Shown: positions 139 to 32,000 of the stretch, in pieces
How the letters are laid out: each line of letters begins with the position of its first letter
Numbering within the stretch: the first letter of the stretch is position 1
Source: Dysgonomonas sp. 520
GTDB taxonomy: Bacteria; Bacteroidota; Bacteroidia; Bacteroidales; Dysgonomonadaceae
Direction of reading: 5' to 3'
Length of the DNA: 32,000 nucleotides
Assembly (NCBI RefSeq): GCF_010501095.1
Contig: NZ_QVMP01000007.1
Location: forward strand, 1-32,000
Made by a program: the position numbers and the translations under genes
The notes under the pieces: generated by a model
The model's database searches: none
What the model saw: the letters and a program-made list of their open reading frames with translations, nothing else
Told to the model about the DNA's origin: nothing

Positions 139-2964
139 ATGATGCTACCAGAAAACTATCAATTGCTGAAAGATGAACTTTCAAAGAAAATCGATTCGAA
201 ACGAATCGTTACTAACCCGTTGCAACTACTGGCATACGGAACAGATGCAAGTTTTTATCGTTTAATACCTAAACTTGTGGTGCAAGTACACACAGAGGAA
301 GAGGCTGTTGAAGTGATACGGTTGACTGGAAAAATGAACATACCTGTAACCTATCGGGCTGCCGGAACAAGCCTTTCGGGACAAGCGATAAGCGACTCGG
401 TATTGATGGTAGCAACACACAAATGGAAAAAATATACTATTCTGGAAGACGGACTTAAAATTCGCCTGCAACCCGGTATTGTGGGAGCAAGAGCTAATAT
501 ATTCCTTGCACCTTTCGGCAGGAAAATAGGTCCTGATCCGGCCTCGATTAATGCTGCTATGATTGGAGGTATAGCGGCAAACAATGCAAGCGGGATGTGT
601 TGCGGCACTGCTCAAAACTCGTACCAGACCATTGCCGATATTCGTATAGTTTTATATGATGGTACAATATTAGACACATCGGACGACAAAAGTAAAAAGG
701 AATTCATAGAAAAGCACCCCGAGATAATTAAAGATATAGAATCACTGAGGGATGGTATAGAAGCAGATAGAGTATTATACGACAGAATAAAGCGTAAATT
801 CAAAATAAAAAACACCACAGGATACAGCATCAATGCCTTTGTCGATTTCAGCGATCCGTTCGAAATCATCAAACATCTGATGATCGGCTCGGAAGGCACA
901 TTGGCTTTCATCTCCAATATTACCTACAACACTGTTGTTGACGAAAAATATAAAGCATGTGCCTTGTTGATATTCGAAACGATAGAAAAAGCCTGTGAGG
1001 CTGTTCCTTTATTAAAAGAGAGTCCGGTTTCCGCCGTCGAGTTGTTAGACCGTGATTCCATTCGTTCGGTGGAAGATGATCCCGATGCTCCGGAGTATTT
1101 CAAGACTCTACCCGAAACGGCATGTGTTTTACTGGTCGAAATACAGGCTAACGACAAGGAAACAATGTCGACAAAAGAAACAGCCATCAGAAAGGCAATA
1201 GAAACAACTCCTACGATTTTGCCCTACAAATTTACGTCCGACCCGAAAGAATATAATTTCAACTGGAAAGCAAGGAAAGGACTCCTTTCGTCTGTTGGCG
1301 GATTAAGAAAAACCGGAACCACCTGTTTGATAGAAGATGTAGCTTTTCCTGTTTCCCGTTTGGCAGAAGCGTGTGTAGCCTTGAAAGACCTTTTCAAAAG
1401 GCTTGAATATCACGATGCTGTTCTTTTCGGTCATGCTTTGGAGGGAAATTTGCACCTTAATTTTTCTCAGGATTTTTCATCTCCGCAAGAGGTAGAACGT
1501 TATGCCAAACTGATGGATGAACTTGCCGATATTGTGGTGAACAGGTTCGACGGTTCGCTGAAAGCCGAACACGGCACAGGGCGCAACATGGCTCCTTTTG
1601 TGGAAAAAGAATGGGGAGAGGCGGCTTATAGTATAATGTTACGTATAAAGGATATCTTCGATCCGCTGAAACTAATAAATCCGGGAGTTATCATAAATGA
1701 AAATCCGAAAATACACCTCGAAAACCTAAAACCTTTACCTGCTGCACACGAATTGGTGGATAAATGTATGGAATGTGGTTTCTGCGAACCCAATTGTGTG
1801 TCGGAAGGATTAACACTTTCGCCACGCCAGCGTATTGTTATTGCCCGTGAAATTGCCCGTTTGAAGGCATTGGGCGAATCAACCGAAAGATTGGTACAAA
1901 TGCTGCATGACGCAAAATATTTTTCCGACGAGACATGTGCAACTGATGGATTATGCGGACTTGTTTGTCCTGTAAAAATAGACACGGGAAAATATATAAA
2001 GGAAGTGCGCCACATGGAATCATCCGACAGAGCAAAAAAAACGGCGGCGTACATAGGCGATCACATGAAAGACGTAACATCAGTTGGACGTGTCGGACTG
2101 AATTTTGTCGATTTCTTTCACTCTATATTGGGAGACACTTTGATGGGAGGAATAGCCGGCGGTATGAGAACTATCTCGGGAAACAGGATTCCTAAATGGA
2201 ACAAAGATATGCCCAAAGGCTCGCACAAGATAAAACATTCTGTGGTGAATGAGAGTCAAGAAAATAAAGTTGTGTATTTTCCGTCCTGCATCAACCGCAC
2301 GATGGGAAAATCGAAGGGATATGAAAAAGATGAAGTGGAACTAACCCGAAAAACGGAAGAATTATTGACCAGAGCAGGATTTACAATCATCTATCCCGAA
2401 AATCTGGATAAATTGTGTTGCGGTATGGCATTCAGTAGCAAGGGATTGAAAGACGAAGGAAGTAAAAAATCGAAGGAACTGGAAGCCGCCTTGTTCGAGG
2501 CCTCTGATGGTGGGAAATATCCGGTTCTCTTCGATATGAGTCCTTGTTTTTATACTTTTCACGATGCTTGCGCAAACGAAGCCTTGAAGATTTATGATCC
2601 TATCGAGTTTATGCTCGATTTTGTAATGCCAAAGCTGCAAGTGAAGAATCCGAAAAAGATAGTGACAGTATTTCCTGTTTGCTCTGTCAAAAAAATAGGA
2701 ATGGAGCAAAACCTGTACAAACTAGCTCAAATGTGTTCGGAAGAAGTGAAACTTGTGGAAAGCAATTGTTGCGGGTTTGCCGGCGATAGGGGTTTTACTT
2801 ATCCCGAGTTAAACAAACACGGATTAAGGCACTTACAGGAACAAATACCGGCAAATTGCAAAGAAGGCTATTCAACAAGCCGTACGTGTGAGATTGGGAT
2901 GAGCGAGTATAGCAATATCAACTTCAAATCTATTTTCTATTTGATAGATGAAGTAACCAGATAG
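139..2964 (+). CDS. FAD-linked oxidase fused to 4Fe-4S and CCG cysteine-rich domains (Dld-II-type D-lactate dehydrogenase-like oxidoreductase)
   Basis: 942-aa ORF. N-terminal FAD-oxidase-like motifs (RAAGTSLSGQA, GSEGTLAFI, KAEHGTGR). Two ferredoxin-type clusters (CMECGFCEPNC, CATDGLCGLVCP). Two C-terminal CCG motifs (LCCGMAF, NCCGFAGDRG). The track start at 136 is GTG; ATGs at 139 and 142 are equally plausible. Confidence 0.8.
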   Translation: MMLPENYQLLKDELSKKIDSKRIVTNPLQLLAYGTDASFYRLIPKLVVQVHTEEEAVEVIRLTGKMNIPVTYRAAGTSLSGQAISDSVLMVATHKWKKYTILEDGLKIRLQPGIVGARANIFLAPFGRKIGPDPASINAAMIGGIAANNASGMCCGTAQNSYQTIADIRIVLYDGTILDTSDDKSKKEFIEKHPEIIKDIESLRDGIEADRVLYDRIKRKFKIKNTTGYSINAFVDFSDPFEIIKHLMIGSEGTLAFISNITYNTVVDEKYKACALLIFETIEKACEAVPLLKESPVSAVELLDRDSIRSVEDDPDAPEYFKTLPETACVLLVEIQANDKETMSTKETAIRKAIETTPTILPYKFTSDPKEYNFNWKARKGLLSSVGGLRKTGTTCLIEDVAFPVSRLAEACVALKDLFKRLEYHDAVLFGHALEGNLHLNFSQDFSSPQEVERYAKLMDELADIVVNRFDGSLKAEHGTGRNMAPFVEKEWGEAAYSIMLRIKDIFDPLKLINPGVIINENPKIHLENLKPLPAAHELVDKCMECGFCEPNCVSEGLTLSPRQRIVIAREIARLKALGESTERLVQMLHDAKYFSDETCATDGLCGLVCPVKIDTGKYIKEVRHMESSDRAKKTAAYIGDHMKDVTSVGRVGLNFVDFFHSILGDTLMGGIAGGMRTISGNRIPKWNKDMPKGSHKIKHSVVNESQENKVVYFPSCINRTMGKSKGYEKDEVELTRKTEELLTRAGFTIIYPENLDKLCCGMAFSSKGLKDEGSKKSKELEAALFEASDGGKYPVLFDMSPCFYTFHDACANEALKIYDPIEFMLDFVMPKLQVKNPKKIVTVFPVCSVKKIGMEQNLYKLAQMCSEEVKLVESNCCGFAGDRGFTYPELNKHGLRHLQEQIPANCKEGYSTSRTCEIGMSEYSNINFKSIFYLIDEVTR

Positions 2965-2975
2965 AAAAAACTTGA

Positions 2976-3013
2976 GAAATGAGGTTATTTTTTGCGAAAA
3001 AAAACCTCATTTC
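2976..3013. terminator. Shared hairpin between convergent genes (likely bidirectional terminator)
   Basis: 11-bp perfect stem gaaatgaggtt (2976-2986) / aacctcatttc (3003-3013). The loop is itself self-complementary (tttttt..aaaaaa). T-rich on both sides. Lies between the stop at 2964 (+) and the stop at 3019 (-). Confidence 0.55.
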
Positions 3014-3018
3014 TTATT

Positions 3019-4278
3019 TCATACAAATTGTTTTTTGGGAACAACAGTCACCAATTTGAACAGCTTATCGGACGGGCGTATTTTGTCTGTCAGTTTAATT
3101 GAAAATTTTTCACCCTTAACAGTCTCTTGCACAGGTTTGAGATCTACACGAATCTCTTCCACTGTCTGAGTTATAGCTCCGGTTGTAGGACCGGTAATCA
3201 ATATTTCATCACCTACTTTCAGGGTTTGTGTCTCCATCAGGAATTCTCCGACCCCAAGATTTGAAAAATATTTGATGCCTTTCCCTATATATACTTTCTT
3301 CTTAGTAGATTCCGACCCGTAATTCATAGACCACTCGCCCAATCTTTGTCCAAGATAATAACCATCCCAAAATCCACGGTTGAAGACAGTTGCCAAACGG
3401 GAATCCCAGTCCTTTATCTTATCTTCGGAGAATGAACCGCCGCAATATGCTTTCACAGCTTCTTTATAACATTCAACAACTGTGCGCACATATTCAGCTC
3501 CACGGGCACGTCCCTCTATTTTGAAAACCCGTACTCCGGCATCCATCATTTTATTCATGAAATGGATTGTTTTCAAATCTTTAGGAGACATAATGTATTC
3601 ATTATCAATCTCTAATTCTATTTCACTGTCTTTGTCCTTAACAATATATCCACGACGGCAAATCTGGTTGCATGCCCCTCTGTTTGCCGACAAATGTTTT
3701 TCGTGAAGACTCAGATAGCATTTTCCTGAAACAGCCATACACAATGCTCCATGAGAAAACATTTCTATGCGGATCAGTTCTCCATTTGGTCCTTTAATTT
3801 GCTGGTTTTCTATATCTTGGTATATACTATGAACCTGCTCAAGGTTCAACTCACGAGCCAATACAACAACATCAGCAAACTGACCATAAAATTTCAAAGC
3901 CTCTGTGTTGGTAATATTCAGTTGAGTTGATAAATGTACTTCAACATCTATGCTGCGAGCATACATCATGACTGACACATCCGAAGCGATAATTGCCGAT
4001 ATATTAGCCTCTTTAGCCGCATCCACAATTTTGCGCATCAATTCTATGTCATTGTCATAAATGATTGTATTTACAGTCAGGTAGCTTTTAATGCCGTTTT
4101 CCTTACATATTCCGGCTATATTTTTGAGGTCGTCTGTTGTAAAATTATTTGCCGACTTGGCACGCATATTCAACCCTTCTATACCAAAATAGATTGAATC
4201 TGCTCCTCCTTGTATAGCTGCCGCCAACGATTCGTACGAACCCACGGGAGCCATTATTTCAAAGTCTTTTATATTCAT
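3019..4278 (-). CDS. Peptidase U32 family protein (collagenase-like PrtC type)
   Basis: Contains the U32 signature E-x-F-x2-G-[SA]-[LIVM]-C-x4-G-x-C-x-[LIVM]-S as EMFSHGALCMAVSGKCYLS. N-terminus FEIMAPVGS is typical of the family. The track start at 4296 is a TTG; the first ATG (MNIKDFEIMAP) is at 4278. Confidence 0.85.
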   Translation of the reverse strand: MNIKDFEIMAPVGSYESLAAAIQGGADSIYFGIEGLNMRAKSANNFTTDDLKNIAGICKENGIKSYLTVNTIIYDNDIELMRKIVDAAKEANISAIIASDVSVMMYARSIDVEVHLSTQLNITNTEALKFYGQFADVVVLARELNLEQVHSIYQDIENQQIKGPNGELIRIEMFSHGALCMAVSGKCYLSLHEKHLSANRGACNQICRRGYIVKDKDSEIELEIDNEYIMSPKDLKTIHFMNKMMDAGVRVFKIEGRARGAEYVRTVVECYKEAVKAYCGGSFSEDKIKDWDSRLATVFNRGFWDGYYLGQRLGEWSMNYGSESTKKKVYIGKGIKYFSNLGVGEFLMETQTLKVGDEILITGPTTGAITQTVEEIRVDLKPVQETVKGEKFSIKLTDKIRPSDKLFKLVTVVPKKQFV

Positions 4279-4339
4279 TTCAATATAAGATGTCAATAGA
4301 ATCTAGAGTCTGTTTATTTTTTTTGAGAGTACAAAGATA

Positions 4340-4374
4340 AAAGAAAATGAGCCGCAAGAAAAACCTACGGCTCA
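4340..4374 (-). terminator. Rho-independent terminator after phnA
   Basis: 7-bp GC-rich stem tgagccg (4348-4354) / cggctca (4368-4374). On the minus strand it is followed by a U-rich run (complement of aaagaaaa, 4340-4347). Confidence 0.55.
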
Positions 4375-4402
4375 ATATAATTACCTTTTAGTTAAAGCTA
4401 AT

Positions 4403-4735
4403 TTATCCTTTCTTTAAAAAGCATGTTTTAAGAACAATGCTCGATCCGTCAATTTTGCAATCAACTTCTTCCGGATTGTCTGTCAATCTGATGCTTTTCA
4501 CTTTTGTTCCTCTTTTTATAACCATCGACGAACCTTTCACTTTCAGGTCCTTAATAACCGTAACTGCGTCGCCATCCATAAGTTCTGAGCCGTTGCTATC
4601 TCTTGGCGTGTCGTCTGTTTCTGTTTCGTTGCCATCATTTGTCCATTCGTAGCTACAGTCGGGACAAACAAATAAAACCCCATCAAAGTAGGTGTTTTCC
4701 ATACTGCATTTCGGACAACTTGGTGCTTCTGCCAT
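4403..4735 (-). CDS. phnA: PhnA/YjdM zinc-ribbon protein
   Basis: 110 aa. N-terminal CPKC...CPDC zinc ribbon, then the conserved C-terminal beta domain (GDAVTVIKDLKVKGSS..IKRGTKVK..IRL). No other phn genes nearby. Confidence 0.85.
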   Translation of the reverse strand: MAEAPSCPKCSMENTYFDGVLFVCPDCSYEWTNDGNETETDDTPRDSNGSELMDGDAVTVIKDLKVKGSSMVIKRGTKVKSIRLTDNPEEVDCKIDGSSIVLKTCFLKKG

Positions 4736-4856
4736 TCTTCTGTATTTTTTATTAAAGTTTATAAATCAAGGCAACAAAGGTAGGCTTTATATGTTTCAGT
4801 TGCAAATGGATGATTGCAGGAAATAGGTTTCATCTATAATGTACTTAAAATATCTA

Positions 4857-5634: not shown

Positions 5635-6009
5635 ATGAAAACTGTTGGAAATGTGATATGGCTCGTATTTGGAGGGTGGATGATTGCCCTTGAATATTTT
5701 ATGGCCAGCTTGGTTTTGATGGCTACCATTGTCGGAATACCCTTTGGTTTGCAGAACATAAAGTTGGGGGTTCTTGCCCTATGGCCTTTTGGATGCAGAG
5801 TGGTGACAGCAGAAGATACCTCCGGATGCCTGAATGTAGCCTTGAACGTGATCTGGATAATTATAGGTGGCATTTGGATAGCTCTCACCCATATTGCTTG
5901 GGGCATATTATTATGTATTACCGTTTTCGGAATACCTTTCGGATTACAGCACTTCAAATTTATCAAACTGGCATTATTTCCTTTCGGAAAAGTGGTTGAA
6001 GAGGCATAA
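5635..6009 (+). CDS. YccF-family inner membrane protein
   Basis: Two repeats of the YccF motif (GIPFGLQNIKLGVLALWPFG and GIPFGLQHFKFIKLALFPFG). N-terminus MKTVGNVIWLVFGG resembles E. coli YccF. Start moved to the ATG at 5635. Confidence 0.8.
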   Translation: MKTVGNVIWLVFGGWMIALEYFMASLVLMATIVGIPFGLQNIKLGVLALWPFGCRVVTAEDTSGCLNVALNVIWIIIGGIWIALTHIAWGILLCITVFGIPFGLQHFKFIKLALFPFGKVVEEA

Positions 6010-6036
6010 AAAAGGTGATTTTAATAAACCACCTTT
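6009..6036. terminator. Hairpin between convergent genes
   Basis: Stem aaaaggtg (6009-6016) / cacctttt (6029-6036), followed by ttctgtt. Confidence 0.45.
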
Positions 6037-6060
6037 TCTGTTATCAATATTTTTGCAAAT

Positions 6061-6852
6061 TTATTTTTGAGAGAAAACTAATTTTTTTACATCATATTTG
6101 TAGTCGCCGGAACTAAATTGCACCATAACTACCTGACTCATTTTCAACGGAGTTTTTGTAGTGATTGAGCCTGCTATCGGGGTATTTGTCGGGAAATTGA
6201 CAGCATTTCTTAATGTTATAGGAGCTTTGTGAGCATTGCCCTCATTGTCTATTATTGTAGCTTCGTTGTATGAATAGAAACTTACTTCCTGATCTTTGTT
6301 AGCTTTGTTTTCCACCACAAAATTGATTTTAAGAGCAGTAGCCGATTCCTCCGCCTTTGTCCATTTCAAATACACATCTTTATAAATTTCCATTACACTT
6401 GCGCTAGCCAGATTCGGATCAGCCTTTAGTGGCACAGCTATGTTTTTCATTACAATCTGCATTCTTTGCTGTGTTGTATGGTTAAAGAACTTAATAATCA
6501 GGGCTGTAATAGGATTCATGTTTTTATTGTCTGTTTTAATTGCCAGATCAAAACTATAAGGTATATCAGGAAGCAAAGTATTATCCCAGCTCGACAAATA
6601 AGCAGATTTTCCTGCCCACCACAAAGCCTTACAGGGTTGAGCATCACCATCCTGAGTTACGGCCGAGGCCTCAATACCCATCAAACGAACGCCCGAACTG
6701 GTTGTTAATTTCCCTGAGACTAATAAATAATCTCCAATCACTCTGGTCGATTCAATTTTTATTGTCAAAGGATCAACAGTAATCTGTGTCTGACTTGATG
6801 CGCCGAAAATCAATGCTACACTGATAAAAACGGCAAGAAGAAGTTTTTTCAT
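6061..6852 (-). CDS. Hypothetical secreted protein (beta-rich, two-domain appearance)
   Basis: 263-aa ORF with a clear signal peptide (MKKLLLAVFISVALIFGASSQ). No recognisable catalytic motifs. Confidence 0.6.
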   Translation of the reverse strand: MKKLLLAVFISVALIFGASSQTQITVDPLTIKIESTRVIGDYLLVSGKLTTSSGVRLMGIEASAVTQDGDAQPCKALWWAGKSAYLSSWDNTLLPDIPYSFDLAIKTDNKNMNPITALIIKFFNHTTQQRMQIVMKNIAVPLKADPNLASASVMEIYKDVYLKWTKAEESATALKINFVVENKANKDQEVSFYSYNEATIIDNEGNAHKAPITLRNAVNFPTNTPIAGSITTKTPLKMSQVVMVQFSSGDYKYDVKKLVFSQK

Positions 6853-23891: not shown

Positions 23892-26039
23892 TTACTCTGC
23901 AAGTAATATTTCCATAATCTGAACAGCAGCTTTCGTAACCGAAGTACCCGGTCCAAAGATTGCGGCAACACCAGACTTGTAAAGGAAGTCGTAATCCTGT
24001 GCGGGTATAACCCCTCCTGCAATCACCACTATATCCTCACGACCAAGTTTCTTAAGTTCCGCTATCACCTGTGGCACAAGCGTTTTGTGACCCGCAGCCA
24101 GAGAAGATACTCCAAGAACATTCACGTCGTTTTCCACAGCCTGACGTGCAGCTTCTTCCGGAGTTTGGAACAATGGCCCCATATCTACGTCGAATCCACA
24201 GTCTGCATAACCGGTAGCAACTACTTTAGCTCCACGGTCGTGTCCGTCCTGACCCATTTTTGCAATCATAATACGGGGTTGACGACCTTCTTTCTTTGCG
24301 AATTCCGCCACAAGCTCTTTTGCTTGTTGGAATGTAGAATCATTTTTAGTTTCTGATGAATACACGCCTGATATTGTTCTGATTATAGCTTTATAACGAC
24401 CTACAACTACCTCGCAGGCATCTGAAATTTCACCTAGAGTAGCACGAACACGCGCTGCTTCCACCGCAAGTTCGAGCAAGTTTCCTTTTTTCGTTTTCAC
24501 GCATTCTGTGATAGCTTCCAATGCTTTCTTAACAGCATCATTGTCACGGTTAGCTTTCAGTTCGTTCAAACGCTCGATTTGCTGACGGCGAACTTCCGTG
24601 TTATCCACATCAAGAATATCAATAGGATCTTCTTTCTCCAAACGGTATTTGTTAACACCGATAATAGTTTGAGCACCCGAGTCAATTTTAGCCTGAGTAC
24701 GTGCAGCAGCTTCCTCGATACGCATTTTTGGAAGACCTGTTTCGATAGCTTTCGCCATGCCACCCAATTTTTGTATCTCTTGAATATGTTCCCACGCTTT
24801 ATGCACAAGTTCGTTTGTCAGTGTTTCCACATAATAAGAACCTGCCCAAGGGTCAATTTCTTTTGTAATCTGAGTTTCCTCTTGAATATATATCTGAGTA
24901 TTACGTGCAATACGTGCAGAAAAATCGGTAGGAAGTGCAATCGCTTCGTCCAACGCGTTGGTGTGAAGTGACTGAGTGTGTCCAAGTGCCGATGCCATTG
25001 CTTCGATACAAGTACGTCCTACGTTATTGAATGGGTCTTGCTCTGTCAGCGACCATCCCGAAGTTTGAGAGTGAGTACGCAAAGCCAGTGATTTCGGATT
25101 TTTGGCACCGAAACTTTTCACGATTTTCGCCCACAAAAGACGTCCGGCACGCATCTTGGCAATTTCCATAAAGTGATTCATGCCGATTGCCCAGAAGAAC
25201 GACAAACGTGGAGCGAAAGCATCCACATCAATGCCTGCGTCGATACCTGCTTTCAGGTATTCCATACCATCGGCAAGCGTATAAGCCAACTCGATATCGG
25301 CTGTTGCACCCGCTTCTTGCATGTGATAACCCGAAATAGAGATAGAGTTGAACTTAGGCATCTTCTGAGATGTATATTCAAAGATATCAGCGATAATCTT
25401 CATTGAAAATTCAGGTGGATAGATGTATGTATTACGCACCATGAATTCTTTCAGAATGTCATTCTGGATGGTACCTGCCATTTCTTCCAGTTTGGCACCT
25501 TGTTCCAATCCTGCATTGATGTAGAACGCAAGTACAGGAAGAACCGCACCGTTCATAGTCATAGATACTGACATCTGGCTCAACGGAATACCATCGAACA
25601 ACACTTTCATATCTTCAACCGAGCAGATAGAAACACCGGCTTTACCGACGTCACCCACCACACGAGGATGGTCGGCATCGTATCCACGGTGCGTAGCCAA
25701 GTCGAAAGCAACGGAAAGACCTTTTTGTCCCGATGCCAGGTTACGACGGTAGAATGCGTTGGATTCGGCAGCAGTAGAGAATCCTGCATACTGACGGATT
25801 GTCCAGGGACGCATAGCGTACATGCCCGAATATGGTCCACGAAGGAAGGGGGGTAATCCCGAAGCATAATTCAGATGCTCCATTCCTTCCAAATCTTCTT
25901 TTGTGTAAACGGATTTCACCGCAATAAGCTCAGGAGTCATCCAGTCTGCTTTGATATCATTGTCGGCAATCCATTTTGCAGCATCTGTCTGAGCAAATCC
26001 TGCATTTTTGATATCTATATTTTTAAAATCTGGTTTCAT
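23892..26039 (-). CDS. mutB: Methylmalonyl-CoA mutase large (catalytic, B12-binding) subunit
   Basis: 715 aa. TIM-barrel substrate-domain motifs ([21 protein letters not shown]) and a C-terminal cobalamin domain with DxHxxG (QDGHDRG). Confidence 0.95.
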
Positions 26040-26059: not shown

Positions 26060-26087
26060 AAACGCAAAGACAGTAAGACGCTAAGAA
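26060..26087. repeat. Left terminal inverted repeat of the GxxExxY cassette
   Basis: AAAC followed by three tandem 8-mers GCAAAGAC AGTAAGAC GCTAAGAA. The last 8-mer overlaps the ORF stop codon. Confidence 0.5.
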
Positions 26088-26479
26088 ATAAAATAATTAT
26101 TGACTTTTCTTTTAATGCCTTCTTTCAATAAAGCAACATTGAAATTTATCAAATAACCCAGTCTCAAATCTGTAAGCTTTAAATAAGTTACTAATTGTAC
26201 TTCATCAACTTTGTGTAAAAGTTCACAAGATTTAAGTTCTATAATAATAAGGTTTTCTACCAGAATATCAATTTTGAAGAATTTGTCTAATTTCTGACCT
26301 TTATAAAAAACAGGTAGTTCCACTTGACTTTTTACTTCTAAATTTCTATTTCTTAATTCTTCACAAAGACAGATTTCATAGACAGACTCTAATAAACCGG
26401 GACCTAATTCCCGATGCACTTCAATGGATGCATCAAGAATATGTTTTCCGATTTCTTCGTATCTTTCTTTTAAAACCAT
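26081..26479 (-). CDS. GxxExxY protein (PD-(D/E)XK nuclease-superfamily fold)
   Basis: 132 aa. Literal GLLESVY (GxxExxY) motif and a D...ELK motif ([14 protein letters not shown]). Confidence 0.85.
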
Positions 26480-26512: not shown

Positions 26513-28408
26513 TTATTGAATTCCAAGTTTAGCATTGAATGTTCTTAATGTATCGAGCACGTTACTTCTCACATTAACGAAATGCTCAATTCCCTGAGCT
26601 TTCAATTCATCCATCGAAGCAGGAGCACCCGCTACAACAAAATGAGCTTTTCCTTGTATCAATTTGTGAGCTTCCGGAGCATATTCGGCATATTCATCGT
26701 CGCTAGAGCAAAGCACGATGATATCCGCTTTCTTGTCGAATGCAGCTTTCACACCTTCTTCCACAGTTTGGAAACCTAAGTTATCAATAACTTTATATCC
26801 TGCACAACCAAAGAAGTTAGCCGAGAACTGAGAACGAGCCAAACGCATAGCCAGATTACCGATAGTCAGCATGAATACAACAGGTGTTTTATCTGCTTTT
26901 TCAGTAGCCAGACGTAATTTTTCGAAGTCGGTAGCCAAACGTGTTGTTGGCAATGACTGAAGCGTACCTTGCGAGTGACCTTCGCCACATCCGCAGTTGC
27001 AACCACCTTCAACAATTTTGTGAGCAGCTGTTTCTGTGAAGTTAGGATATTGGTTAGTTCCCAACAGTATCTCGCGACGTGTTGCAACCGCTTTCGAACG
27101 ATTGGCAGCAGAAGCAGCGATAGCCGATTGAACTGTTCCGGCTTTCAATGCTTCGTAGAAACCTTTTTCGTCTGTTTCGAGGAATAATTTCCATGCTTGT
27201 TCAGCGATAGAAGACGTTAGGTTTTCGATATAATAAGAACCTGCCGAGGCATCGGTAATTTTATCGAAGTGACATTCTTCTTTCAACAGCAATTGTTGGT
27301 TACGTGCGATTCTTTCAGAGAAATCATCCGAATCTTTATAGGCTTCGTCGAAAGGAAGAACTGTTAAAGAATTGATACCCGCGATAGTTGCCGACATAGC
27401 TTCTGTTTGGCTACGAAGCAAGTTGACATGAGCATCGAAGATAGTCATATTGTAGGTAGAAGTTTCGGCATGTGCATAAATCTTGGCAGCACATCTGCAT
27501 AATCCGTCATCAGTTTTATTAGAACATTCGTTCGGACATTTAGGGTTGTAAGCCATTACTATTTCTGCCCACAACCAGCGTGCAGCACGGAATTTAGCTA
27601 TTTCCATGAAATAGTTTGAACCGATGCCAAAGTTGAATTTGATTTTCTTAGCAACCAAAGTTGCATCCAAACCTTTTTCTGTCAGTTTGCTCAATATTTC
27701 GTTACCGTTTGCCAATGCGTAACCTAGTTCCTGATAGATATAAGAACCTGCATTGTTTAAACGGGTTGCATTCACATTCAATACTCTGAAACGTGGAAGC
27801 GGAGCCGCAGCTAAAGCAATTTCAGCAGCTTTTTCCACCCACTCAGCATTGTCAACGCCCTTTTTGAGGATCGTTTTGAACGGGTCGTAATTAACCGATC
27901 CAAAGCATTGCAATACATCTACATTCTGCGATTTGATGTAATCTACAAGGATTTTCACCAATTCGAGAGAATGTTTCTGACAAGTTGAAAAATTCAACTC
28001 TACTGCTTCGGGATGAATACCGTTCAAAAGAGCTTTGATGTTTTCCGCATTCACATCCTTGCCCTTGATGTGGAAACCAAGTGACGTAACTCCCTTGTCT
28101 AAAATATCCAAAGCCTTTGCGTTAGCAGCTTTGAAATCAACAACATTGATGTCTTGACGCACATACCAGTTGTTGTCTTTTTTTGTTCCTCTTACGTAAG
28201 GAAACTCTCCGGGCAGTGAATCCACTGTCTTAAGACCTTCCAGATTTTCACCTCTGTAGAAAGGGTTAACATTAAATCCCTCGTTTGTTTTCCAAACGAG
28301 TTTCTTCTCAAAATCAGCACCTTTCAGATCGGCAGTTATTTTTGCCATCCATTCTTCCGTTGACACGGGAGGGAAATCTGTAAAAAGCTTTTCTTTTAGA
28401 TTTGCCAT
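26513..28408 (-). CDS. mutA: Methylmalonyl-CoA mutase small (non-catalytic) subunit
   Basis: 631 aa, homologous to the large subunit (FMEIAKFRAARWLWA, SERIARNQQ) but lacks DxHxxG in the C-terminal domain. Confidence 0.9.
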   Translation of the reverse strand: MANLKEKLFTDFPPVSTEEWMAKITADLKGADFEKKLVWKTNEGFNVNPFYRGENLEGLKTVDSLPGEFPYVRGTKKDNNWYVRQDINVVDFKAANAKALDILDKGVTSLGFHIKGKDVNAENIKALLNGIHPEAVELNFSTCQKHSLELVKILVDYIKSQNVDVLQCFGSVNYDPFKTILKKGVDNAEWVEKAAEIALAAAPLPRFRVLNVNATRLNNAGSYIYQELGYALANGNEILSKLTEKGLDATLVAKKIKFNFGIGSNYFMEIAKFRAARWLWAEIVMAYNPKCPNECSNKTDDGLCRCAAKIYAHAETSTYNMTIFDAHVNLLRSQTEAMSATIAGINSLTVLPFDEAYKDSDDFSERIARNQQLLLKEECHFDKITDASAGSYYIENLTSSIAEQAWKLFLETDEKGFYEALKAGTVQSAIAASAANRSKAVATRREILLGTNQYPNFTETAAHKIVEGGCNCGCGEGHSQGTLQSLPTTRLATDFEKLRLATEKADKTPVVFMLTIGNLAMRLARSQFSANFFGCAGYKVIDNLGFQTVEEGVKAAFDKKADIIVLCSSDDEYAEYAPEAHKLIQGKAHFVVAGAPASMDELKAQGIEHFVNVRSNVLDTLRTFNAKLGIQ

Positions 28409-28919: not shown

Positions 28920-30281
28920 TTATTTGACATTATTTTTTTTGTTCGATTTTAAAAATTTCTTGTAATCATTTGAGAGATAGGCGTTATAAAATTCCGACTT
29001 GTTTTCAAAGAATTTTCCGTTTTTGCTCCATTCCTTATTTAATCCTTTGTTGATTTCAATTACAAAATTCATTACTTGTGAATAATATGGCTTATTTTGA
29101 CTTTTGTTTATTACAGACAAAATCTTTTTTCTGTCAGCATTTCCTTTTGAATAATCGGCACGAATCCCCGTGTAAGCCAACAGAACAGCAGAGCCTACGG
29201 TTACCTTTTTTTCTTTTTGAAAATCCATTGATTCAATAAATTTAGAATTGGCGGTAAGATAATTTAAAACCGTTCTTTTTTCAATTTCCTGTGGATAATT
29301 ACCCTGCTTGTAAAAAATCTCGAATTCATCTTTGTTTGCAAACAATTTTCCATTTATCCGATACTCATTTTCGTATTCTTCTCTAAAACTATTATTTAAT
29401 CGTTCAAAATAGGATTGCATAGACGAAATACTATTATTAAAATTGTATTCTCGCCTATCTTTGCCTGTTATTTTGTTGTAATCGGTCAATATTTTTTGAT
29501 TTAGATTATACGGATTTTGCAGAAGTTGACGATTGTAATCTTTGTAAATAGAATCTAATTTTTGATTGTATGTTGCAAGTTCCAACGAATCTAAACGCTC
29601 TAATTCGAGTTTCTTGTTACGAGCGATTTGCGCTGACTGAGACGGATTTTCGTAGGTATAAGTTTTTGAATTATTAGAATATATTAGCGAAAGCAGTGCC
29701 AATTGGTCGTTTTGAATAAAAAAGCGAGCTTTTAAATTCTCCAAACGTTGCATCTCCCACTGCATATTTTTTGCTTCATCAAGAGGAATCGGTATTGGTA
29801 TATTTCCCCAAAAAGTATTGACAATCAGCACTTCATTATCTGCATCATATACTCCCGAATGATAAAAAGGCATACCTGCTAATTTACAGGCATAATCATC
29901 ATAACTAGTTGAAACTCCCAATTCTTTTGCATAAATGTTTATGTGTGATTCTTGTATTGCACTTCTTTTTGTTTCCGTGCTATCTGTCAACCTTCGTTGC
30001 CAGTCTACCGTTGTTTCAAATCCGCCCTTTTTCTTCCAATTCTCCAGCTCTTTTTCTACAAATACACTATATTTGCTGTTTCTTATCTTCTTTAATCTAT
30101 TAGACATCGCTTCTCCAAATACTTCTCCAAACCATCTTATTGCTTCAACTGCATCATTCCCCTCACGTACTGTTTTTTCGAGATTAGTTTCAGGACGAAC
30201 AACAATTGTTTGCTTTTTTTGAGCAAAAACGATATGCCCCCAAAAAGCAAACACCATAAAAATTAAAAATATTTTTCCCAC
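28920..30281 (-). CDS. Hypothetical secreted protein with an internal NGKxFxNKxEF repeat
   Basis: 453-aa ORF with a GTG start (MGKIFLIFMVFAFWGHIVFAQ signal peptide). K/N/E-rich. Two copies of the motif NGK(L/F)F(A/E)NK(D/S)EF at about aa 309 and aa 420. Confidence 0.6.
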   Translation of the reverse strand: MGKIFLIFMVFAFWGHIVFAQKKQTIVVRPETNLEKTVREGNDAVEAIRWFGEVFGEAMSNRLKKIRNSKYSVFVEKELENWKKKGGFETTVDWQRRLTDSTETKRSAIQESHINIYAKELGVSTSYDDYACKLAGMPFYHSGVYDADNEVLIVNTFWGNIPIPIPLDEAKNMQWEMQRLENLKARFFIQNDQLALLSLIYSNNSKTYTYENPSQSAQIARNKKLELERLDSLELATYNQKLDSIYKDYNRQLLQNPYNLNQKILTDYNKITGKDRREYNFNNSISSMQSYFERLNNSFREEYENEYRINGKLFANKDEFEIFYKQGNYPQEIEKRTVLNYLTANSKFIESMDFQKEKKVTVGSAVLLAYTGIRADYSKGNADRKKILSVINKSQNKPYYSQVMNFVIEINKGLNKEWSKNGKFFENKSEFYNAYLSNDYKKFLKSNKKNNVK

Positions 30282-30321
30282 AATTATATAAAAAGTTTGT
30301 GCCTCAAGTCCCGAAGTAGGC

Positions 30322-30561
30322 GATTATAAAAATGAAGAAAGCGTGGGACTTTAACTTTATTCGTGTTCGAGGTCTTAGGATACCTTTGCAGCAAATAAGT
30401 AAGCCCACGCCGACTTTAAATCAACGTGAGCGTCGACTACTTACTCTTGCTGCGTCTGAAAGTTCCTAAGTTTCGAACACAAGAATAAAAGCTAACGCTT
30501 TTTCTTAATATGTTAAATTAATTTATTGTTTTCTATATACTTTCTGTTTTATGTGTTTATT
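30322..30561 (-). ncRNA. Candidate structured leader or sRNA, copy 1 (full length)
   Basis: Lies downstream of a minus-strand -7 box. Helices: 30363-30370/30473-30480, 30374-30380/30464-30470, 30388-30394/30447-30453, 30341-30347/30404-30410, 30338-30344/30495-30501. Ends in CCCACGC plus a U-tract about 45 nt before the GTG at 30281. Confidence 0.4.
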
Positions 30562-30566
30562 TCCTA

Positions 30567-30574
30567 CAAATATA
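30567..30574 (-). promoter_or_regulatory. -7 box (TATATTTG on the minus strand) for the copy-1 RNA and the 453-aa gene
   Basis: CAAATATA on the + strand. Conserved with copy 2, while the adjacent +-strand box has decayed. Confidence 0.45.
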
Positions 30575-30593
30575 AATATTTTAATGAAATCAA

Positions 30594-31577
30594 CTATAAA
30601 GACCCTCTGCAAATTAATTTTGTGGGGATATAAGTTTGCACTTTATTTCTTGTTTTGATGTATTCGGCAGCCAGTTTCCCCATTTGCTTGAAGTCTGTTG
30701 AAATTACTGTAATACCATTCTCAATAACTTCGAGCATTGGCGCATCATTAAAAGTTATCAACCCCACATCTTCGCCCAGTTTATAATCTAATGAACGGCA
30801 GAGTTTTACCATCCTAATCATGTCGTTATGGCTTGCCACCAGATAAGCCGTTCCCGGAGTTACGTCCGAATATCCGAAGTCAGATTCTATAAACTTGTAG
30901 TTGAAGTTATTATCTTCGCAAAACTGAATAAAGTAAGGAATACAACTTTTAGGATGCTCAGAATCATGTCGGATAATAAAATCTATCTCTTTGTATTTTT
31001 TTAGCCTGTTCAGTCCGGATGTAAGGCAATCGTACAGTGTTGTATCAAAACCTTGGCAGACATAAGAAAACTTATCTTTTTTGAATTTTCCCAAGTCGAT
31101 CAATAAAACTTTACTGTTGTCTAACCTGTCCAAGACATCGGAATACATATCATTTGCGATGTTTGTAATCAGATATAAGTCGTAACGTCCGATACAATCT
31201 AGCATCATGTGATTGAATGCCCTTTCATTATAATGATGAAAGTATAAGTCGAGTTTGTAGTTTAAAGGAAGATTTGCGGTCAGTTCTTTGTAAAAATCGT
31301 CCTTGTAGGGGCTGAATATGTCTAGCAGAACAAATATATTATTAACCGTTTTAGACACAAAATAGCCTTTTGTGGGAGCCGATTCGATAATTCCTTTTTC
31401 TTTCAATTCCTGAAAAGCCTTATACACGGTATCCCGCGCCAGTCCATGCTCCGAACTGATTTTGTTGATAGAAGGAAGAATATCTCCCTCCTTGAATTCT
31501 CCGCTGGAAATAGCCATGCGGATGGCATCAGCCAGTTGCCGAACCTTGCTTTTATTTTGATCGAATCTCAATTCCAT
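30594..31577 (-). CDS. GntR-family transcriptional regulator with a sugar-binding (PBP type 1, LacI-like) effector domain
   Basis: N-terminal winged HTH (LPSINKISSEHGLARDTVYKAFQELKEKGIIES). The ~250-aa C-terminal alpha/beta domain is of periplasmic-binding-protein type. Confidence 0.8.
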   Translation of the reverse strand: MELRFDQNKSKVRQLADAIRMAISSGEFKEGDILPSINKISSEHGLARDTVYKAFQELKEKGIIESAPTKGYFVSKTVNNIFVLLDIFSPYKDDFYKELTANLPLNYKLDLYFHHYNERAFNHMMLDCIGRYDLYLITNIANDMYSDVLDRLDNSKVLLIDLGKFKKDKFSYVCQGFDTTLYDCLTSGLNRLKKYKEIDFIIRHDSEHPKSCIPYFIQFCEDNNFNYKFIESDFGYSDVTPGTAYLVASHNDMIRMVKLCRSLDYKLGEDVGLITFNDAPMLEVIENGITVISTDFKQMGKLAAEYIKTRNKVQTYIPTKLICRGSL

Positions 31578-31621
31578 CTCATCATAAATTTGTATTTTTT
31601 TACCTTAAATTCCGAACAGCA

Positions 31622-31843
31622 TATAAAAAAATGAAGCATGGGACTTTAACTATATTCGTCTTTGAGGTCTTAGGATACCTTCGGCACAAACAAGTTAGCC
31701 CACGCCTATATAAATTAACGTAAGCGTTGACTACTTATTCTTGTGCCTATTGCTTTCATACACAGAATAAAAGCTAACGCTTTTCCTTAATACATTAAAA
31801 TCAAATTTTCTTTTTCGAAGTATTTTTTATTTTAAGTATTTAT
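31622..31843 (-). ncRNA. Candidate structured leader or sRNA, copy 2 (one helix arm deleted)
   Basis: Helices 31683-31689/31741-31747 and 31636-31642/31699-31705 are kept through compensatory or wobble changes. Ends in CCCAUGC plus U7 about 46 nt before the GntR ATG. Confidence 0.35.
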
Positions 31844-31860
31844 ATTTGCAAATATAAATA
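31837..31860. promoter_or_regulatory. 24-bp perfect palindrome holding back-to-back divergent -7 boxes
   Basis: tatttaTATATTTGCAAATATAaata. TATATTTG reads on the + strand at 31841-31848 and on the - strand at 31849-31856. Confidence 0.5.
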
Positions 31861-31865
31861 TTTTA

Positions 31866-32000
31866 ATGAAATTAATCACAGTCATAACTTTTATATTTCT
31901 CTCACTATCCGCTTATGGACAATCTTTCCCGAAAATAGGAAAGGATATAACTTCAATAAAAATATTGAATCCGGACAGGCACGACGGCTTAGGAATACAA
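31866..32000 (+). CDS. Secreted protein, N-terminal fragment (runs off the window)
   Basis: The ATG at 31866 opens a frame that stays open to the window end. MKLITVITFIFLSLSAYGQ is a signal peptide. Preceded by the +-strand -7 box. Not in the supplied ORF track because it is truncated. Confidence 0.5.
   Translation, partial: MKLITVITFIFLSLSAYGQSFPKIGKDITSIKILNPDRHDGLGIQ

Follow-up and report, generated by a model that had tools for sequence, protein, structure and literature searches.

Organization of the locus

The DNA analysed here, referred to as the window, is a stretch of 32,000 nucleotides from Dysgonomonas sp. 520. On its minus strand, a gene encoding a GntR/FucR-like regulator of 327 amino acids (30594-31577), whose product matches a GntR-family protein of Dysgonomonas sp. 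520 at 100% identity, is followed by a gene encoding a protein of 453 amino acids (28920-30281) with a GTG start, a signal-peptide-like N terminus and no Pfam domain. The region between these genes contains a conserved leader core, designated copy 1 (30324-30517, minus strand), in which helices P1 to P6 make up a 61-bp rod. A second copy is located in front of the regulator gene (core at 31619-31799, minus strand).

Copy 1 is preceded by an exact match to the Bacteroidetes-type −7 promoter box, TATATTTG (30567-30574, minus strand), from which a transcription start near 30560 was inferred. Alignments showed that the 5′ part of the leader (30518-30560) is A-rich and poorly conserved, and that it is closed by a conserved ACAUAUU box (30507-30513). 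The core was recognized by covariance model R1 with 202.1 bits (E = 1.6e-41), and its rod was supported by the minimum free energy (MFE) fold and by pair counts. The minus strand folded at −69.7 kcal/mol (z = −6.5) and the plus strand at −60.6 kcal/mol (z = −4.0).

All elements of the rod are read from the minus strand. At its base, the segment a region (30488-30501) includes the P1 5′ strand AAAGCGU (30495-30501), the partner of ACGCUUU (30338-30344). P2 pairs 30473-30482 with 30361-30370, and P3 pairs the nearly invariant CUUAGGA (30464-30470) with UCCUAAG (30374-30380), flanked by invariant internal loops. P4 (30447-30453 with 30388-30394) and P5 (30437-30446 with 30393-30402) lead to the apical helix P6 (30403-30431), whose strands are segment b, GCUCACGUUGAUU (30419-30431), and segment c, AGUCGGCGUGGGC (30403-30415). 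Segment d, CCCACGCU (30340-30347), can pair either with segment c, in a terminator stem, or with segment a, through ACGCUUU in P1. A U-rich tract (30326-30341) lies directly 3′ of segment d. The rod base also carries a bulge, AAGUCCC (30345-30351), complementary to the loop GGGACUU (30306-30312) of a hairpin located 3′ of the U tract, hairpin H (GCCU-ACUUCGGGACUUG-AGGC, 30301-30321).

An earlier note on this region had proposed the −7 box, three helices, two competing complementarities and a U-rich run followed about 45 nt on by the GTG at 30281, and all its coordinates held. The proposed helices 30363-30370/30473-30480 (8 bp), 30374-30380/30464-30470 and 30388-30394/30447-30453 correspond to P2, P3 and P4, respectively, and the complementarities of CCCACGC (30341-30347) with GCGUGGG (30404-30410) and of ACGCUUU with AAAGCGU were confirmed. 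On the other hand, the small AACG/CGUU apical hairpin proposed there failed: the conserved apical helix is GCUCACG.../...CGUGGGC (30419-30431 with 30403-30415), so GCGUGGG is paired within the rod and not free. The swap of GCAGCAA/UUGCUGC to GGCACAA/UUGUGCC in copy 2 held, with one correction: this copy has lost the 5′ strand of P3 through an 11-nt deletion, and its predicted fold is not a rod but consists of two hairpins, one of them including the terminator stem.

Distribution of the element

The element is missing upstream of the FucR orthologues of D. macrotermitis, D. termitidis and a Dysgonomonas MAG. A tie of the element to fucR was therefore rejected, and relatives were retrieved by DNA-pattern search. 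The pattern TCTTAGGATACC-N16-22-CCCACGC, run against 185,579 species genomes (one genome per species), returned 35 loci, 32 of them genuine, nearly all in termite-gut Bacteroidales MAGs (taxon labels as deposited), with the addition of Dysgonomonas sp. 216 and 521. No genome had more than two matches, a figure that represents a lower bound on copies per genome because only exact patterns were counted. In metagenomes, the pattern AGCGTTAGCTTT-N13-20-ACTTAGGA gave at least 120 hits from termite-gut and human-gut samples; since this pattern forced the conserved 5′ block, the conservation of that block is overstated. The proteins encoded downstream of the human-gut members were Alistipes proteins. 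A hidden Markov model search of the retrieved loci yielded 156 copies. Searches of plasmid and phage DNA gave no match, and a single matching contig was found in IMG/VR.

Comparison of the whole window with Rfam 15 (4227 models, among them T-box, c-di-GMP-I/II, 6S, 6S-Flavo, Bacteroidales-1 and Bacteroides-1) gave no match at the gathering threshold, and relaxing the search to E ≤ 10 added nothing beyond chance matches to snoRNA and leader models, at 16-20 bits. Over 20 related loci, the same collection identified only rRNA, 5S and tRNA. No description of the leader family was found in the literature searched. These results show an uncatalogued Bacteroidales family of structured RNAs of about 250 nt, present in termite-gut lineages and in human-gut Alistipes.

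Covariation supports a rod read from the minus strand

Covariance model R1 comprised 46 members, 189 positions and 61 pairs, and scored copy 1 at 202 bits on the minus strand vs 33 bits on the plus strand. Across 102 distinct members, standard pairs occupied 93.6% of the pair cells of the rod, against at most 48% in slid controls. Compensatory changes were observed at 38 of the 61 pairs, above every one of 500 shuffles, and changes on both sides of a pair affected 558 cells vs 140 ± 10 in the shuffles, none of which reached the observed value (0/500). These counts come from an alignment fitted to the rod; an independent MAFFT alignment agreed with them (89.6% paired; 206 cells vs 77). A plain MAFFT alignment of 112 sequences was too gappy for RNAalifold, and the covariance-model alignment was used instead. 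Alignment A4, which contained weak opposite-strand matches, was dropped for A5.

The closing helix P1 (AAAGCGU/ACGCUUU) was paired in 98.3% and the apical helix P6 in 98.2% of cases across the 102 sequences. Both-side changes were frequent in P2 (five positions, in 28 to 43 of the 102) and in P4 (in 42 to 61 of the 102). P6 includes a U.G pair that 95 of 102 members retain and that would read as an A-C mismatch on the opposite strand. No conserved reading frame was found on either strand, the length of the element was not constrained to multiples of three, and a conserved small ORF was rejected for both strands. Altogether, the data show that the element is a structured RNA read from the minus strand, with the rod as its conserved fold.

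Position relative to promoters and genes

Of 106 distinct upstream regions, 88 had a same-strand TAnnTTTG box, with a peak 50-100 nt before the core. Downstream, 36 genome-scan copies run into a called gene, and in most of them a start codon on the same strand was found 124-135 nt from the first base of GCGUGGG; the GTG at 30281 of the window, at +129, has this family-typical spacing. In a second subgroup, formed mainly by Alistipes, the AUG follows the U tract directly. One such protein has an NCBI-named relative, WP_288793155.1, with the same N-terminal residues. In the Alistipes members, the A and U of this AUG would pair within the rod base (P1). The position of the element between a Bacteroidetes-type promoter and a same-strand start codon at fixed distance is shown, and identifies it as a 5′ leader rather than a MITE, and probably rather than a stand-alone sRNA; its transcription is inferred. 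An AUG-NNN-stop motif was also noticed about 35-45 nt upstream, in one subgroup only.

The genes behind the leader are shown to be diverse, falling into 54 unrelated clusters. They encode, among others, BspA-type LRR proteins with T9SS tails, BACON/DUF5036 lipoproteins, Sel1, fasciclin, trypsin and PDZ proteins, proteins with phage-tail-collar and S74-chaperone domains, HlyD followed by a C39 ABC exporter, LytTR and small HTH proteins, a PD-(D/E)XK nuclease and the FucR-like regulator. A signal-peptide-like N terminus was predicted in 31 of the 54 clusters vs 29% of the other ORFs at the same loci (p = 4e-5, in a crude test). The gene context offered no metabolic theme or metabolite clue, and no integrase, sigma factor or RNA-binding protein recurred as neighbour among the clustered genome-scan loci and the window.

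An alternative fold with features of a terminator

The pairing of segments c and d, GGCGUGGG (30404-30411) with CCCACGCU (30340-30347), was standard in 97.6% of cells. Four of its eight pairs showed compensatory changes, with 19 cells vs 5.1 in shuffles (0/500), in an alignment that had not been fitted to this pairing. Covariation links segment c to b as well as to d, in a triple b/c/d correspondence. In addition, at least six U within the 9 nt after segment d were found in 97 of 102 members vs 8% of background 9-mers. Both the alternative pairing and the U tract are therefore shown as features of the family.

When the two halves of the core were folded separately, the same shape was obtained in the members examined, copy 2 included. 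The 5′ half formed a hairpin with an AGCGU/ACGCU pairing (mean −20.4 kcal/mol). The 3′ half folded at a mean of −25.7 kcal/mol into a hairpin of about 25 bp that has the c:d pairing as its base and runs up to the U tract. The resulting structure of two hairpins, which excludes the rod and is designated fold T, was 89.4% paired, with 24 pairs changed on both sides vs 13.6 in shuffles (0/500). In it, the 7-mers CUUAGGA and UCCUAAG are placed in the loops of small stems, GAAA/UUUC and GGU/ACC, and these stems account for the conservation of flanking nucleotides that pair poorly in the rod. Segment a can also form a small hairpin, AAAGC-GUUA-GCUUU, which is 96% pairable but invariant and without covariation, its sequence being forced by the metagenome search pattern.

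The stem GGCGUGGG/CCCACGCU satisfies one criterion for an intrinsic terminator, a G+C-rich stem ending at a U tract. Another, a compact hairpin with a short loop, is not fulfilled: the stem closes about 65 nt, which are further folded and include an inner mini-hairpin, and a simple terminator scan did not call it. The rod averages −64.6 kcal/mol, which makes it more stable by about 18 kcal/mol than the two halves (−46.1), and in stepwise folding of the nascent RNA the b:c pairing was in the MFE structure of 100 of 102 members once c was made. From this stability and this early pairing, the rod is predicted to be the default fold.

These results also bear on the broader claims of the earlier note. 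A structure-constrained RNA on the minus strand, a terminator-like 3′ end with alternative pairings and absence from Rfam had been proposed, and all of them held, the pairing of GCGUGGG with its second partner being supported by covariation. That the RNA is transcribed had been claimed as well, and this is inferred, not shown. Between the two options left there, a leader or a stand-alone sRNA, the leader is favoured because of the same-strand start codon at fixed distance and the conserved structure beyond the U tract described below. Homologues without covariation, or dozens of copies per genome with target-site duplications, had been named as observations that would refute the proposal; covariation was strong over 102 relatives, and exact-pattern scans, which give a lower bound on copy number, returned two matches per genome at most.

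A bulge-loop pairing beyond the U tract

The stem of hairpin H covaries, and its loop docks on the bulge at the rod base. Compensatory variants of bulge and loop were found in several forms (GUUCC/GGAAC, CAGCC/GGCUG, UUGUCC/GGACAA and CAAUCC/GGAUUG). The loop was the exact complement of its own bulge in 44 of 99 sequences vs a permutation mean of 34 and a maximum of 43, and the flanking positions paired in 43 and 37 of 64 cases vs permutation means of 33.5 and 29.0. The permutation tests are significant but modest, and together with the compensatory variants they show the bulge-loop pairing. In Alistipes members, hairpin H is part of the coding sequence, which leaves the AUG enclosed by P1 on one side and the pseudoknot on the other. 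A role of hairpin H as terminator was rejected, as most members have no U tract after it.

A model for the leader

The leader probably gates the expression of the gene behind it, a statement made in the absence of transcript data. As to how, we lean, by a modest margin, towards a bistable leader acting as a zipper-like transcription attenuator with read-through as default. According to this model, transcription would start at the TAnnTTTG promoter, and, after the variable A-rich stretch, the RNA would adopt one of two exclusive folds. Fold R would be the 61-bp rod, with GCUCACG/CGUGGGC at the tip, AAAGCGU/ACGCUUU at the base and the bulge AAGUCCC docked on the GGGACUU loop of the hairpin further downstream. 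In fold T, the halves would fold apart, and the 3′ hairpin on GGCGUGGG/CCCACGCU would constitute, with the U tract, an intrinsic terminator before the start codon. Fold R would zip by default and RNA polymerase would read through, the rod being the antiterminator. A putative trans factor, either protein or RNA, that holds the conserved 5′ half would free GGCGUGGG, with the result that the terminator would form and the gene would be off. Termination at fold T, the default fold and the very existence of a trans factor are inferred.

Several observations weigh against this attenuator. Transcription start, 3′ ends and termination lack transcript data, and the terminator stem is no simple hairpin, as it encloses a large structured loop. 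The U tract may be conserved solely for its pairing with the 5′ A tract in P1. Since the rod is the more stable fold by the margin given above, fold T would require either a kinetic trap or a factor, neither of which has been identified. Furthermore, the conservation of structure beyond the U tract shows that the full-length read-through RNA is functional, which fits translational or stability control as well as attenuation, and the predicted pairing of the A and U of the start codon in the Alistipes rod base points to translational control.

Alternative explanations

Translational or stability control is the serious rival, and it may coexist with attenuation. It remains possible that the rod, the pseudoknot and hairpin H hide or expose the start region, with consequences for translation or mRNA fate and without regulated termination; in a variant of this explanation, RNase III would cut the rod and create the 5′ end of the mature mRNA. 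Initiation in Bacteroidota needs an open A/U-rich start region, without Shine-Dalgarno pairing. In favour of this rival, the structure runs past the U tract and docks beside the start region, and the Alistipes AUG lies between P1 and hairpin H with its A and U paired in P1. As for the variant, RNase III could plausibly act on an imperfect duplex of about 85 bp, and the leader-gene-leader-gene arrays resemble intergenic processing sites. However, neither the tracking of c by d at four positions nor the U tract after d in 97 of 102 members is explained in this way, and the rival does not exclude attenuation.

The remaining alternatives are weaker. A stand-alone or 5′-UTR-derived sRNA of about 240 nt, ending at the U tract and acting in trans by base pairing or by binding and titrating a protein through the invariant internal loops, with read-through being incidental, would account for the terminator-like 3′ end, the several near-identical copies per genome and the invariant P3 region, and multicopy sRNA families exist in Bacteroides (PMC11697453). 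It is nevertheless unlikely, given the fixed spacing to a same-strand start codon with no space for a second promoter, so that downstream genes would be without a promoter of their own, the conserved pairing that joins the rod to a hairpin beyond the U tract, and the AUG that abuts the U tract in one subgroup. A riboswitch, in which a small molecule or ion, such as a second messenger, would occupy a pocket made by the rod and the pseudoknot and so set the balance of the folds, is in keeping with the existence of two folds, one of them with a terminator, with the invariant internal loops beside P3 and with a mixed, surface-biased set of downstream genes recalling second-messenger riboswitches. 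We consider it very unlikely, because the rod is nearly continuous, without any multi-helix junction, the alternative fold accounts for the conserved "loop" nucleotides as stems, the genes share no metabolic theme and no known riboswitch model matches. Finally, a DNA-level repeat without RNA function, be it a MITE-like palindrome, a bidirectional terminator or a recombination site, could be suspected from the long imperfect palindrome, its duplication within 1.3 kb in the window, the tandem copies elsewhere and the T run after the palindrome on both strands. This explanation is all but excluded by the strand asymmetry (202 vs 33 bits), the wobbles that would be A-C on the other strand, the orientation of the copies with the next gene and with a promoter in front, the two exact-pattern matches per genome at most among the 185,579 species genomes (a lower bound), and the lack of plasmid or phage matches, with one in IMG/VR. 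The absence of the element upstream of fucR orthologues also speaks against it, but the duplication in the window copies the promoter and the start of the neighbouring gene, as a segmental duplication would.

Comparison with known regulatory RNAs

For the preferred attenuator model, the closest described mechanism, by analogy, is the zipper-type attenuator cATT of Bacillus subtilis plasmid pLS20 (Gonzalez-Alvarez et al., Nucleic Acids Res 2026, PMC13401043), which antiterminates by default and whose trigger is presumed to be either a protein or an antisense RNA (PMC13401043). Two of its features are met here: a long leader with a long imperfect stem-loop, in our case the 61-bp rod, and a 5′ base complementary to the terminator region that extends the antiterminator, P1 sharing ACGC with the terminator stem. 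For a third feature, a conserved weak hairpin upstream of the long stem, AAAGC-GUUA-GCUUU is no more than a candidate, with the caveat on its invariant, pattern-forced sequence made above. There is no sequence relation between both systems. cATT belongs to Bacillota plasmids, where it precedes conAn1 and conjugation genes, whereas the Bacteroidales leader is found on chromosomes before many unrelated genes. Moreover, the latter has no separate local terminator hairpin: the terminator takes its 5′ strand from the tip of the rod, where this sequence is the 3′ strand of the apical helix, and its formation therefore requires the whole rod to refold into two hairpins. We found no described counterpart for the complementary invariant 7-mers in both hairpin loops or for a bulge-loop pseudoknot beyond the U tract.

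The logic of the leader is also reminiscent of trp-leader-type, TRAP and PyrR attenuators, since pairings 1:2 and 3:4 exclude 2:3 in those systems as a:b and c:d exclude b:c and a:d here. The Bacteroidales element has no leader peptide over segment 1, is far larger than these attenuators, with about 60 bp engaged, and its effector is unidentified. With c-di-GMP-I (GEMM) riboswitches it shares the condition of cis leader, the terminator/antiterminator alternatives and a heterogeneous set of genes biased to exported proteins, but not an aptamer-like junction, an Rfam match or a known ligand. Two hairpins showing complementary loops of about 7 nt, from which an extended duplex could be nucleated, recall CopA/CopT and RNA I/RNA II, with the difference that both hairpins are in one molecule here and that kissing is inferred from a predicted fold.

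Known RNAs of the same taxon with upstream TAnnTTTG promoters, namely Bacteroidales-1 (RF01693), Bacteroides-1 (RF01694), 6S-Flavo (RF01685) and FopS/GibS, offered no identity. The models of the first three do not match and the Bacteroidales-1 sequences are unrelated, while FopS consists of a single-stranded seed plus a terminator hairpin, unlike the leader; FopS/GibS, Bacteroidales-1 and the GUCCY hairpin were all considered and rejected. 6S RNA has a central bubble and is encoded by a free-standing gene; it was also rejected, as the leader lacks such a bubble, occupies a leader position and is not matched by 6S models.

Little is understood about how Bacteroidota control their genes once transcription has begun; to our knowledge, they have no Shine-Dalgarno-led initiation, Hfq or ProQ. 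The family described here is large, strongly covarying, absent from Rfam and placed before genes for exported and surface proteins. If it is a regulated attenuator, it would define a new regulon of the cell surface and the secretome in a major gut order and would extend zipper-type attenuation beyond Bacillota plasmids. The conserved 5′ half provides a concrete bait for finding the controlling factor.

Tandem copies and natural variants

A bolder reading, which we consider less likely than not, is that one unidentified trans factor flips a Bacteroidales-wide regulon of zipper leaders, placed before dozens of unrelated genes, mostly for surface or secreted proteins, between read-through and termination. 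As part of it, CUUAGGA and UCCUAAG may be kissing loops that nucleate refolding within the molecule or mediate cross-talk between copies, from which a copy with swapped 7-mers would be insulated.

Leader-gene-leader-gene tandems were found in the window and in four other loci (L014, L021, L035 and L037). In the window, copy 2 was recognized by R1 with 115.1 bits and is, with its flanks (about 31619-31870), about 85% identical to copy 1. Its −7 box (31849-31856, minus strand) is half of a palindromic divergent promoter, inverted repeat I1, whose plus-strand box is at 31841-31848. The duplication extends into the promoter and the start of the neighbouring gene, fitting a segmental duplication. 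In locus L014, copy 2 has both strands of P3 swapped to UUCGAC/GUCGAA, with the loop display being kept, and its segments c and d have changed together, from GCGUGGG/CCCACGC to GCGUGAG/CUCACGC.

Genomic setting and duplication of the leader in Dysgonomonas sp. 520

In Dysgonomonas sp. 520, the gene encoding the GntR/FucR-like regulator (30594-31577, minus strand) is flanked by two copies of the leader, copy 1 (30324-30517, minus strand) and copy 2 (31619-31799, minus strand). In other Dysgonomonas species (loci L001-L009), a GH2 gene and a fucose isomerase gene lie downstream of the FucR-like regulator gene, and a SusC-like gene lies upstream of it. In contrast with these loci, no GH2, fucose isomerase or SusC-like gene was found in the window near the regulator gene at 30594-31577.

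Analysis of the region 5' of copy 2 revealed a palindromic divergent promoter, TATATTTGCAAATATA (31826-31871), which carries a -7 box on each strand (31841-31848 on the plus strand and 31849-31856 on the minus strand). One of these boxes is assigned to leader copy 2, whose transcription is inferred, and the other to a gene on the plus strand with its start at 31866, whose product is a signal-peptide protein. Comparison of 30567-30593 with 31849-31875 revealed that the duplication yielding copy 1 took along the promoter as well, together with the beginning of the coding sequence (ATGAAAT...) of the divergent gene on the plus strand. What is left of the latter at this site is a remnant ORF of 24 codons (30584-30658), which shares sequence with the regulator gene at that gene's 3' end. 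Since promoter and first codons were copied together with the leader, a segmental duplication is the likely origin of copy 1, rather than the movement of a precise mobile element.

Conserved sequences upstream of the core

An ACAUAUU box (30507-30513, minus strand), located 10-12 nt 5' of the AAAGCG start of the core, is conserved at the same position in most relatives. The box does not match the TAnnTTTG promoter motif, and it remains unpaired and without a partner in both the rod and the two-hairpin fold. It might correspond to a second promoter element or to a binding site.

A second motif, YUAUG-NNN-UAA(A), is conserved 35-45 nt 5' of the core in one leader subgroup (L035, L139, L026, L151, L163, L030, L085 and others), and is not present in either window copy. 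In this motif, a start codon is separated from a stop codon by only one to three codons. On its 3' side lies a small hairpin, the stem of which shows covariation (e.g., GGGCGUA...UACGC, GAGAG...CUCUC). Motif and hairpin could represent a mini leader ORF or an additional structural module.

Leader loci in other genomes

The surroundings of the leader were examined in a single Alistipes-type locus, L122. In this locus, the leader (1682-1882, plus strand) and a 148-aa membrane/zinc-ribbon-like ORF are oriented toward the 3' end of an rRNA operon (5S, 2422-2535; 23S, 2715-4742; both minus strand). The ORF had no exact-sequence match in the protein collection. Among the clusters of downstream genes, it falls into the largest, which has 32 members.

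In the MAG locus L014, a second leader copy (5990-6196, minus strand) has both P3 strands replaced (UUCGAC/GUCGAA), segments c and d, which pair as the putative terminator stem, being altered together. This copy may be an "orthogonal" version of the leader beside the standard one. A standard leader (145 bits, HMM) was also present at L041. The label of this contig assigns it to a Fusobacterium ulcerans MAG, but it is probably a misbinned Bacteroidales contig.

Elsewhere in the window, a 132-aa ORF (26081-26479, minus strand) is sandwiched between the genes for the methylmalonyl-CoA mutase subunits (23892-26039 and 26513-28408).
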